From the IMG/VR virus record IMGVR_UViG_2939521961_000016: a stretch of 63,271 nt of DNA. The stretch is one strand, 5' to 3'. This document shows, piece after piece, positions 18,001-21,000 of the stretch (positions are counted from its first letter, which is position 1; each line of letters begins with the position of its first letter). Made by a program: the position numbers. Source of the DNA: a virus (Duplodnaviria; Heunggongvirae; Uroviricota; Caudoviricetes).

Positions 18001-21000
18001 GAGAAGCATCACTCCGCACACGCAAGATGTTTCACACTCACACCATACAGTCCATTTTTCGCCATTCCCGTATACAGAAAGCTATTCACTGTCTTCATGT
18101 GAATTCCCATTTCACTGGCAAGGCGACATCATGTACCCCTTTCAATTTTTCCAGATTCAGCTGAATAAAACGGCGTCCCTGATACATACTGCGCATTAAA
18201 TGGCCCAACTGACTATCACAGATTATTAACCAGGATTCTTTACTATCCAGAATAATCCTGCGATTTTCCGGCATAAAAAACTCTTGAACCAGAATTACAC
18301 GGCATCCTTCACTCCATCGTATTAACATGTTTATTACTTCACTCTCTAATAACCCCCCCCCTATACATGACAACAAAAACCGGAGCCGGGCTCCGGTTTT
18401 GTGAAGCTGTCGGCTATTTCATCCCGCCAATATTTTCCCACGTCCCGTCAGCACGCAGGATTTGCAGCGGTCTTACCACGCACTGTATCTGCTTTTTATC
18501 CGCATCCAGTATCACCACCTGCGTGATTACCCTGTCCTGCTCCGGGATAATGCCATTCTCATCGGACTCCAGAATGTCTGCCGGTCCCAGTCTCAGTTGT
18601 ACTGTAAGCGACTGCCCGTGTTCACGGCCATCATGCTTTCCGCAACCGCACAGACGCTGCATAAGTTTTTTTAGTATGTTCATGTCATTCTCCTGTTCTG
18701 CCTGTATCACTGCCCACTTCATCCAGCCCCTTAACATCCTGCCACGGCCCGTCACCAAACCTGACCTGCAAATGCCGAAACAGCCCCTGAACCTGTGTGG
18801 CATCTTTGGGGTCAAGAAAGGTCAGTCCGGTGATGAGTGCGCCATCTGTATCCGGGAACCAGCCATTGCTGTTTGTCTCAATAATGTTTCCCGGCCCCAG
18901 ACGGAACCGTATTTGCGTCTCCCCCGGGTCGCCCTTCGGCCCCTGAGGTCCGGTTGCCCCTACCGGGCCAGCCGCACCTGTTTCTCCTTTCGGTCCCTGT
19001 GGGCCTGCCGGACCTGCCGCACCGGTATCTCCCTTTGGACCCTGTGGACCTGCATTTCCCGTCAGACCGGTCTCTCCCCGCTCTCCCCTGTCGCCTTTCG
19101 GCCCCTGCGGGCCTGCCGGACCAGCATCACCTGCCGGTCCCCGTTCGCCGGTTGCCCCGACAGGGCCGGTGTCACCGCGCTCTCCCTTATCACCCTTCGG
19201 CCCAGCCGGACCTGCTGGCCCCGTGTCCCCTTTATCTCCTTTCGGACCGGGAACACCACCTCCTGCTGCAGCCTCTTCTGCCTTTGTTTTCGCTTCATTT
19301 GCCACATCCATTGCCGCTTTCACCGCTTTCGGGGTGGCAGCCTTCGTTTCATCATCACTGTCCGTTGCGCTGCTTAACTGCACAATTCCCTTCTGTGCCG
19401 TCGTTGCATCAGCCACATTTGCAGCGCTGCCTGCCGGACCTGGCTCTCCACGAGGTCCCTGAGGTCCGGTCTCTCCTCGTTCGCCTCTCGGACCTGCAGG
19501 ACCAGGTTCACCTCGGGGGCCAGTCTCCCCACGCTCACCTCGTGCTCCCATCGGTCCCTGTGGTCCGGCTTCTCCTCGTTCGCCTTTAGGACCTTGCGGG
19601 CCTGCAGGACCTCCCGGATCACCTTTCTCGCCTTTTGGCCCCATATCCCCCTGGTCCCCTTTAGGCCCCCGCTCTCCGGTATCCCCCTTCAGGCCTGGTA
19701 TTCCCTGCGGTCCTCGCTCCCCCTGTTCGCCCTTCTCACCACGCGGACCAGCGGGCCCTACAGCCCCCTGAGCACCAACGTCACCACGCTCACCTTTCGG
19801 CCCTGCGGGCCCTTGAGGGCCCACTGGACCTGTTTCGCCTTTAGGACCGACATCCCCCTTCGGACCAGTTTCTCCCTGAGGCCCCCGGGGCCCCCGTGCA
19901 TTCTCAGCCATACGTCTGGCCTCTTCAGCACTGACAGTGGCAGCCTCTGCCCGCTTAAGGATCTCTCCGGCGCTCTCCTGCGCCAGCCTGGCCTTTTCAG
20001 CATGCTGTCTGGCTTTTTCTGCATCAGCTCCGGCGGCTTTTTCAGACTCTCCGGCACGGGTCGAGCTTTCCTCTGCATTCCCCGCTGCTGTGACTGCACG
20101 GGTCGCAGCCTCAGTGGCATCAGTCGCTTTTTGTCCGGCTTCAGCCGCCCTGCTGGTTGCCGTCTTTGCACTGTCAGATGCGCTCTTCGCACTGGCTGCT
20201 GCACTTTCTTTTGACTGTGTGGCCTGAGCGTTTTTTGTCGCCGTGTCTTCATTCAGGCGACGAATAGTGGCAAGGTCATCAGCCACATTATTCTGTATCT
20301 GCCGGAAATCTGTCAGCAGTTCTCCGGGTATGCTAACCTCAACAAGACTGCGGCGTAACAGCATATTGAGCGTCACCGTACTTTCGGTCCCCTCAATACG
20401 CACACGTCCGTAGACAGCAGTCTTCCCTTTCACCGTCACCGAAACCGCATACTCCCCCGGATCCATCGTCATTCCGTAATATCCACCTTCACGGGTCACT
20501 GCCGACGCACTGGTGCCGCTGAGCGCATCCGGTGAAACTGTCAGCGCCGTCAGGGTAATATTTGCTCCTGATATCGCCTCACCATCAGGAGATTTCAGCG
20601 TCCCCGAAACAACAACACTCACACTCCACCTCCGTTAAACACTTTTTTACGGGCAGACAATGCACTGTCTGCCCCCTGTTTGATCCCTAGTTGCTCAACA
20701 AAACTCTGATAATGCTGCGCAGCCAGCCCCGATTCTGCGCCACCGGCAGCATCCTTACTGAAAGCGCGAAACAACATCCAGTCCACCAGTGGGTTAACAT
20801 AAGCCTCTTCCAGTGGAACTGGCGTATCATCGTCCTGCGTCAGAACATACACTGCCTCCGGTATCCGGCTTACCACTGCATCAATACTTATCTCTTTGTC
20901 AGGAGCAGGAAACAGCCAGAATACGCGCGGGGACAGGTCGTTGCTGATAAAACATTCAGGAATACCCTTCATTGTGGGCCACTCAGGATACTGCGCATCC

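Follow-up and report, generated by a model that had tools for sequence, protein, structure and literature searches.

A paralogue of the fibre knob encoded directly behind the collagen-like tail fibre gene of a Stx2a phage

Why should a phage tail fibre gene be followed, a single base behind its stop codon, by a second and free-standing gene for a version of the fibre's own end? This question is raised by the Caudoviricetes record IMGVR_UViG_2939521961_000016 (Duplodnaviria; Heunggongvirae; Uroviricota), a stretch of 63,271 nt which we refer to as the window, and which comes from a short-tailed phage of the Sp5/933W/phi24B type that carries Shiga toxin (Stx) 2a. On its minus strand lie the gene of a 645-aa lateral (side) tail fibre (18685-20622) and, after it, an open reading frame (ORF) of 89 codons plus stop (18414-18683), hereafter the small ORF. 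The first-pass annotation of this DNA had noticed by eye that the small ORF resembles the end of the fibre, and had offered two functions for it, namely a fibre assembly chaperone or a cassette for swapping distal tips.

The pairing itself is not new. The study of phage Sp5 by Mondal et al. (2016; PMC5155283) describes the 89-aa ORF68 with its phage-fibre C-terminus domain, lists it among the non-essential late genes, dispensable on K-12 for both plaque formation and lysogenisation, and suggests that it serves as an "intragenomic reservoir" for fibre variation. Since 2016, then, both the pairing and the reservoir idea have been in print, and the basic observation adds nothing to the literature. 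What is added here is information on selection, translational coupling, co-occurrence and the lack of exchange, which together argue against the published reservoir idea. The curated genome of phage 434 labels the same ORF, in the same place after the side tail fibre, "tail fiber assembly chaperone", and a search of the literature for the rationale of this label returned nothing specific. The domain in question is better understood from the fibre EPclA, in which PfC (Phage_fiber_C) acts as a trimerisation domain and the collagen-PfC construct (Col-PfC) rapidly refolds its triple helix; the EPclA fibre and isolated PfC each trimerised in E. coli when cloned and expressed as one gene alone (Ghosh et al. 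2012; PMC3368898).

A diverged copy of the fibre knob

The similarity between the small ORF and the fibre lies far beyond chance, in both pairwise alignment and domain searches, and therefore reflects true domain paralogy. BLASTP aligned residues 28-88 of the small protein with residues 571-633 of the fibre (24/63 identities or 38%, 63% positives, E=1e-12). By itself the small protein matched the whole of Pfam PF06820, the PfC family (6.6e-36, 122.9 bits, residues 28-89, model positions 1-64 of 64), as did the fibre (2.5e-34, 117.9 bits, residues 571-634, model positions 1-64); membership was taken as a score above the gathering score of 25 bits over all 64 model positions, and both proteins pass. 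A tblastn search found no third copy of the domain in the window, in which the fibre and the small ORF hold the only two. Our ORF calls agree exactly with the first-pass annotation in coordinates, protein sizes and 1-nt spacing, and the match to the fibre C-terminus that it had proposed proved genuine, although it covers about 62 residues instead of about 80.

The small ORF starts with ATG, matches PHROG 576 over its full length and is the counterpart of Sp5 ORF68 and of "gp59" in the phi24B proteome file. Its PfC-like domain, as delimited by Pfam PF06820, occupies codons 28-89 (18417-18602, minus strand). The alignments place ahead of this an N-terminal extension of 27 codons, MNILKKLMQRLCGCGKHDGREHGQSLT (18603-18683, minus strand), with a predicted short helix at residues 3-11, a conserved Cys-Gly-Cys and no counterpart in the PF06820 domain; the CGCGK of this extension is kept in P0068, the homologue from Citrobacter rodentium. 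The fibre for its part ends in an 11-residue C-terminal tail, the DEVGSDTGRTGE region (18688-18720, minus strand), which is absent from the small paralogue and near-invariant across 74 related fibre ends. Just ahead of the small protein's domain stands DGREHGQS, which resembles a decayed Gly-X-Y end (its equivalent in the fibre is GDPGETQ) and would fit an origin from a 3' fragment of a fibre gene. The small ORF is best described as a copy of the C-terminal PfC knob of the fibre that was duplicated long ago, has since diverged and has gained a new 27-residue extension; its most probable source is the displaced 3' end of a fibre gene.

The fibre itself, which has a GTG start and is assigned from the ORF list, Pfam and DNA identity, is the counterpart of Sp5 ORF67/ECs1228, 933W L0121 and phi24B gp61, and the 2.8 kb around the pair are 99.8% identical in DNA with many Stx2a-converting phages. 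Its domain order is that of EPclB, with an N-terminal attachment domain (PfN), a coiled coil, collagen tract 1, a Pf2 repeat, collagen tract 2 and the PfC knob. The earlier identification as a collagen-like tail fibre was borne out by Pfam, which matched Collagen in five stretches (4.2e-43) together with the tail-fibre domains phage_tail_N/CarboxypepD_reg (residues 1-129, the N-terminal prophage tail-fibre domain) and Phage_fiber_2 (residues 407-448); the distal globular knob, residues 571-634, is encoded at 18721-18912 on the minus strand. Among structures in the PDB, the fibre matched only collagens, the Pf2 repeat of Mu S and the N-terminus of one tail fibre, while sequence and profile searches found no PfC relative there, just chance matches to the coiled coil of optineurin (E>0.2).

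In Sp5, ORF67 is an essential tail fibre, as judged by deletion and immuno-electron microscopy (PMC5155283). The cryo-electron microscopy (cryo-EM) study of phi24B (10.64898/2026.04.10.717836) shows six lateral fibres, each of them trimeric, and gp61 is seen there to lie back against the capsid; the map does not resolve the distal domain of the fibre, and the authors name the receptor and the role of the fibre as open questions.

Selection, start signals and expression

The small ORF is very probably a real functional gene. It was compared across 83 loci, made up of 80 related IMG/VR loci, phages 434 and 1717 and one chimera locus, together with the window. This set holds 84 full-length copies, of which 82 have the 89-codon frame open and 81 were used as intact. 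Mean pairwise divergences among 62 distinct DNA alleles were 0.117 at synonymous sites (pS) and 0.017 at non-synonymous sites (pN), giving a ratio (dN/dS) of 0.13, which was lower in the PfC-like region (0.08) than in the N-terminal extension (0.30). Read in its other two frames, this DNA gave control values of 1.05 and 4.2. The small ORF is under purifying selection.

For the fibre's own PfC domain the dN/dS was 0.26, which exceeds that of the small paralogue. When the 74 related fibre ends were compared with the window (18685-18912), variation in this domain was concentrated at a few positions (GPGN/GPAS/GPMS, N/H/Y/Q at residue 585, D/G, Q/R, L/F/M/V and D/N), and the variants recombine into an allele mosaic. 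These variable positions may mark a ligand-facing surface.

The signals around the small ORF are equally well kept. Its ATG lies exactly 1 nt past the upstream stop codon in 81 copies (TGA-C-ATG in the window), and a Shine-Dalgarno sequence, AGGAG, stands 6 nt before it, inside the last codons of the fibre gene (18690-18694, minus strand). The junction ACAGGAGAATGACATG (AGGAG-AATGAC-ATG) is identical in 78 of the 84 copies, and a one-base variant occurs in two to three more. Judged from the DNA, its context in the window, AGGAGAATGACATG, indicates translational coupling of the two genes, and a promoter scan found no promoter-like site directly upstream of the small ORF in the 3' end of the fibre gene. 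Just 3' of the small ORF is an intrinsic terminator hairpin (18373-18402, minus strand; RNA folding energy -17 kcal/mol, z=-3.95), consisting of CCGGAGC-CCG-GCUCCGG lengthened by A/U pairs and followed by a run of U. A consensus promoter and terminator scan missed this hairpin; folding confirmed it. It is conserved in the related loci, recurs with decayed fragments of the small ORF and travels with both genes as the end of a module.

The same junction could be taken as the site of a programmed +1 frameshift or stop bypass, by which the fibre would also be made as an isoform of about 735 aa with two tandem PfC knobs. The small ORF does lie in the +1 frame, which is open for 46 codons upstream of its ATG in 64 of 84 alleles, and the fibre ends in GAA-UGA-C with AGGAG just upstream, a superficial likeness to the prfB shift site. 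A two-knob isoform is not absurd either, since the distant fibre P0142 has four tandem PfC-like domains in one chain. However, GAA is unable to re-pair in the +1 frame (AAU), a +1 stop occurs just 13 codons upstream of the ATG in 13 of the 84 alleles, so the long overlap is not conserved, and the conserved Shine-Dalgarno sequence and ATG are more simply explained by independent initiation. Mondal et al. found no frameshift-inducing sequence (PMC5155283). The search database of the phi24B proteome did include the entries "Fusion_6159_FS1/FS2", annotated "Spike or just gp59?" (10.64898/2026.04.10.717836), but no junction peptide (such as TGEDMNILK) is among the phi24B peptides listed; the count for the fusion exceeds that for gp61 only in sample EA1829, which is late in the series, and not in EA1811, the main gp61 sample, which is weak evidence. 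We give frameshifting very little credence. The 565 residues of P0142 comprise the four PfC-like domains (motif ...VVVLDAD...GILQVRRADGTW.EIPALKG), then collagen repeats and another C-terminal domain, so the knob can be repeated in series along one chain.

Alternatively, the small ORF might be a functionless remnant, the displaced 3' end of an older fibre gene, that is kept by linkage and, with the terminator, as shared homology for the shuffling of cargo downstream. The decayed Gly-X-Y end fits such a past, the genomic places of the small ORF outnumber those of the fibre PfC domain by about 650, and 5'-truncated ORF ends recur together with the terminator about 0.8 kb downstream in 14 of the 83 loci; in L018, where they bracket an nleG-like effector gene, they show the region to be a recombination joint. 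These displaced 3' ends, however, are just 80-89% identical to the ORF, and the one in locus L018 has an in-frame stop and a deletion. Displaced fragments thus decay while the copy next to the fibre stays intact, which argues that the latter is kept by selection. A synonymous divergence of about 0.12 is enough time for decay; nonetheless 82 of the 84 fibre-adjacent copies have an intact frame with a dN/dS of 0.13, their start signals are conserved and peptides of the protein have been detected (see below). Descent from a remnant does not conflict with an accessory role of the protein; a present-day lack of function does, and we regard it as highly improbable.

These peptides come from the supplement to the phi24B virion proteome (10.64898/2026.04.10.717836), where at least two peptides specific to the small ORF, VITQVVILDADKK and ADGTWENIGGMK, have three peptide-spectrum matches (PSMs) each, compared with 2267 PSMs for the fibre gp61. 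The supplement places them in "gp59_start", in the six-frame ORF 39891-40295 or in hypothetical fusions, again with the remark "Spike or just gp59?"; the main text of the preprint contains neither gp59 nor gp60. By a crude estimate the small protein amounts to about 2% of the fibre per residue, or well under one copy per virion. Trace peptides beside an abundant fibre mean that the small protein is made in lytic growth, yet is not a stoichiometric component of the virion.

This abundance bears directly on a further explanation, in which every fibre would end in a cap made of three copies of the small protein, and this cap would be the true adhesin or host-range determinant, like the gp38 of T2-type phages or the Tfa of Mu, which stay on the fibre. 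Peptides in purified phi24B virions, the strict co-occurrence with the fibre and the cryo-EM study, which leaves the distal domain and the receptor of the fibre open, would all suit a structural tip, and non-essentiality in K-12 is compatible with a role on other hosts. However, some 6 PSMs for 89 aa against 2267 for the 645 aa of an 18-copy fibre are far too few, and the phi24B main text names no such protein among the virion components. We consider a structural tip decidedly unlikely.

The fibre module, the proposed tip exchange and the probable role of the small protein

The small ORF and the fibre knob show strict co-occurrence. Each of the two was found in 296 records of the phage collection (for the fibre, as a fibre-type PfC domain), with identical breakdowns by organism; in 5426 complete E. 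coli genomes the small ORF is found in 698 (6813 places, median 11 per positive genome) and the fibre PfC in 697 (6159 places, median 10). Phages 434 and 1717 have the same order of fibre, 1-nt gap, 89-aa ORF and terminator, and there the cassette follows J and lom, as opposed to the adaptor gene in short-tailed Stx phages. Together with the small gene and the terminator, the fibre's distal half makes up a single module, almost unchanged across short-tailed Stx phages and long-tailed lambdoid prophages, the latter including phages 434 and 1717 and many prophages of enterohaemorrhagic E. coli (EHEC).

The family itself is narrow. A profile search of 1.84 billion representative proteins gave 83 hits, most of them pieces of these E. 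coli genes, and the hosts were Escherichia and Citrobacter rodentium only. Scanning one genome per species added E. albertii, mislabelled contigs and weak matches at chance level, with no independent lineage. Two of the contigs are almost certainly contaminated or mis-binned: L085 (725 bp), labelled Xanthomonas pisi, is E. coli lambdoid prophage sequence with a 93%-identical small ORF, and L086, labelled as a metagenome-assembled genome of Clostridiales, is E. coli lambdoid prophage sequence with a J-like fragment, lom and an EPclA fibre.

The small ORF might instead be a silent spare tip that is occasionally recombined onto the fibre, as Mondal et al. proposed (PMC5155283) and as in the tip-swap cassette of the first-pass annotation. 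We compared 81 intact small ORFs (19 distinct proteins) with 74 adjacent fibre ends (32 distinct). All 74 fibre ends adjoining a small ORF carry a fibre-type PfC domain and there are no intermediates: PfC identity is at least 93.5% among the small ORFs and at least 84.4% among the fibre ends, but 29.7-40.6% between them. No long fibre with a tip of the small-ORF type was found among the database hits. In the window the two paralogues share 108 of 192 nt (56%) and no word longer than 7 nt, so homologous recombination between them is not plausible, and the segment 17800-20800 has no inverted repeats of at least 14 nt and no invertible segment, which leaves no room for a switch like that of Mu G. 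In addition, a silent cassette has no need of a conserved ribosome-binding site, an ATG and a constrained N-terminal extension.

On the other side stand two chimeric proteins. In P0065 (locus L003, 1-291), collagen tract 2 runs in frame into the small ORF's PfC domain, with GERGPA directly followed by DILESD at the joint, and the reciprocal-looking P0122 combines the first 40 residues of the small ORF with the last 52 of the fibre (the C-terminal half of PfC). Such chimeras are rare, however, with P0065 represented by four member sequences from two samples and P0122 by one representative entry; part of the domain is missing from them, and they accompany fusions of the ORF to J, Lom, CII and other genes that resemble ordinary deletions in decaying prophages. 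Taken together, a reservoir or tip-swap cassette is disfavoured, and we hold it to be most unlikely.

Chimeras of the small ORF were seen in P0065, P0067, P0087, P0122, P0028 and P0005. The P0065/L003 junction spans the microhomology GGACCGGCAG, and its contig begins within the collagen tract. The small ORF is joined within codons 35-38 (GPA-D-IL) in three independent fusions, whose partners are collagen tract 2, the tail-tip protein J and Lom; this may reflect a microhomology hot spot or chance, the cases being few (five chimeras, one junction read).

The reading that we favour, while giving it slightly less than even weight, is that the small protein is a dispensable accessory protein of the fibre. 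Its gene is co-transcribed with that of the fibre and translationally coupled to it through the AGGAG-N6-ATG that overlaps the fibre stop codon. By homology, the protein would probably form a PfC-type trimer of its own and probably act at or on the PfC end of the fibre, during or after assembly. It might, for example, improve the yield or fidelity of trimerisation and collagen nucleation, or bind the tip transiently, and would be neither a stoichiometric part of the virion nor a silent spare tip. Its trimer formation, its contact with the fibre and its role in assembly are what we infer. That the accessory function is help with fibre assembly specifically is possible, but appreciably less likely than an accessory role as such.

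The chaperone proposed in the first-pass annotation can be retained in part. The position of the gene, its coupling to the fibre gene and the trace presence of its product in virions fit a helper of the Tfa kind. On the other hand, ORF68 is non-essential, and EPclA and its PfC trimerise from single genes, so the small protein is not an obligate chaperone. It is at most a non-obligatory helper, for which a quantitative effect is possible.

Several points weigh against an accessory role at the fibre. The text of the Sp5 study calls ORF68 non-essential and mentions no phenotype for it (PMC5155283), and since the EPclA fibre and PfC trimerise without a partner gene (PMC3368898), a helper is not strictly needed. 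The six PSMs could come from contamination of the virion preparation. Furthermore, the AlphaFold2 monomer model of the small ORF (16-row alignment; mean predicted local distance difference test score, pLDDT, 53; predicted template modelling score, pTM, 0.36) has the helix, but at low confidence, and was judged unusable, and the phi24B authors obtained no confident model of this domain either (10.64898/2026.04.10.717836). Finally, the tight linkage and the recent spread of this one module inflate the argument from co-occurrence, which they partly explain, and the family is a narrow one.

A bolder version of the accessory reading, which we think unlikely, is that a displaced fibre end was exapted as the small protein and now acts in trans as a new kind of partner for collagen-like fibres. 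A free PfC-type trimer, possibly stapled by disulfides through the conserved Cys-Gly-Cys, would dock on the knobs or co-assemble with them, and thereby control the folding of the fibres, their pairing or their hold-back against the capsid. If true, this would be a mechanism unrelated to the Tfa and gp38 chaperones, and it would bear on the role of lateral fibres in the spread of Stx phages.

T5 Llp and lambdoid Cor are encoded next to receptor-binding genes, and by analogy of gene position the small protein might be an exported free copy of the tip that blocks the fibre receptor and so excludes superinfecting phages. A copy of the tip would bind the same ligand, and the LCGC motif is loosely like a lipobox. 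However, the stretch of 11-13 residues that leads up to the cysteines (MNILKKLMQRL) is charged and amphipathic, which on inspection makes a Sec or lipoprotein signal very unlikely; likewise, by inspection, MNILKKLMQRLCGC contains no hydrophobic core and hence no signal peptide with a lipobox was recognised in the small ORF. The gene is also coupled to a late structural operon, with no promoter-like site upstream of it in the fibre's 3' end, and gave no PADLOC hits. Receptor masking is therefore scarcely credible.

In EHEC-type E. coli each genome has about ten copies of these collagen-like fibres and their small companion gene, which also occur on the phages that spread Shiga toxin. A constrained and translated partner of the fibre, as opposed to a spare part or debris, is a concrete candidate for tests of fibre assembly, host range and transmission.

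Neighbouring genes and comparison with known systems

The genes around the pair agree with the assignment of the 645-aa protein as a tail fibre. Upstream, a 216-aa ORF encodes an SU10-type adaptor, the binding partner of the fibre. Downstream, at 14901-17869 on the minus strand, are a 567-aa ORF for the nozzle (phi24B gp57, Sp5 ORF70) and a 422-aa ORF for the central needle (phi24B gp56, Sp5 ORF71), which overlap by 4 nt. The needle ORF has a lambda-J-like Phage_Tail_Tip domain (PF09327, 2.5e-11), and the phi24B authors consider the needle likelier than the collagen fibre as the route to the BamA receptor (10.64898/2026.04.10.717836).

Between the terminator and the nozzle lies another small ORF (18095-18376, minus strand; 77-93 aa depending on the choice of start), which belongs to PHROG 2014 and has no match in Pfam, NCBIfam or PADLOC; a promoter-like site is found within it at 18249-18222. 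By its position between ORF68 and ORF70 it is probably Sp5 ORF69, whose deletion gave several-fold more plaques and lysogens in the Sp5 study (PMC5155283). A run of nine G (18353-18361, minus strand; C9 on the plus strand), which lies between the terminator and this ORF, is a possible slipped-strand site; the run at the equivalent position of L018, the one long-tailed prophage locus read, has just five G.

A different arrangement is seen in the 14 long-tailed prophage loci, L018 (4040-4190), L016, L011, L019, L020, L026, L027, L029, L031, L036, L039, L048, L070 and L073, in which a decayed, 5'-truncated copy of the small ORF's 3' end is met again, with the same terminator, some 0.8 kb further downstream. 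In L018, the only one of them that was read, the repeated copies of ORF end and terminator bracket an nleG-like effector gene, and more nleG-like genes follow. The 3' end of the ORF together with the terminator looks like a joint where cargo genes for type III effectors are stacked, which matters for how virulence genes are shuffled; our search for prior literature on such a joint found nothing specific.

With regard to known systems, the small ORF shares with lambda Tfa, Mu U, P2 G and T4 gp38 its small size, its place right after the fibre gene and its coupling to it: it is directly downstream and co-expressed, with a 1-nt gap, a Shine-Dalgarno sequence and ATG, and a terminator after the pair. 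However, searches of Pfam, PHROGs and NCBIfam placed it in no Tfa or gp38 family, just in families of PfC or "tail fiber protein"; where those chaperones have an unrelated fold, the small protein copies the end of its own fibre, and Sp5 does not require it for infectivity (PMC5155283). A second C-terminal coding copy just downstream of the fibre is also a feature of the invertible segments Mu G and P1 C. In such segments (e14 P is another) the alternative C-terminal exons have opposite orientations and inverted crossover sites on either side, but the two copies in the window share a strand and the region around them (17800-20800) is free of inverted repeats of at least 14 nt. We also considered a target and template pair of a diversity-generating retroelement, as in the variable and template repeats (VR/TR) of BPP-1 Mtd, where the repeats differ mainly at adenines and a reverse transcriptase is encoded, and rejected it: the two copies are 56% identical with no near-identical template repeat (no search for a reverse transcriptase gene was made), and the small ORF has its own start signals and constraint at the protein level.

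T4 fibritin foldon and the NC1 domains and C-propeptides of collagens resemble PfC in being small C-terminal domains that register three chains and nucleate a triple helix, as shown for the PfC of EPclA (PMC3368898). The searches found no sequence or solved-structure relative. We know of no case in the foldon and NC1 systems where such a trimerisation domain has a free-standing duplicate as a separate gene. Compared with EPclA and EPclB themselves, both window proteins match the whole PF06820 model and the fibre has the EPclB architecture, while the small ORF differs by standing alone, by its 27-residue N-terminal extension and by its identity of just 30-41% to fibre-borne domains. Sp5 ORF68, its equivalent in 933W-type phages and phi24B "gp59" are the same gene in the same position, with no structural difference; no new type of system emerges from this work.

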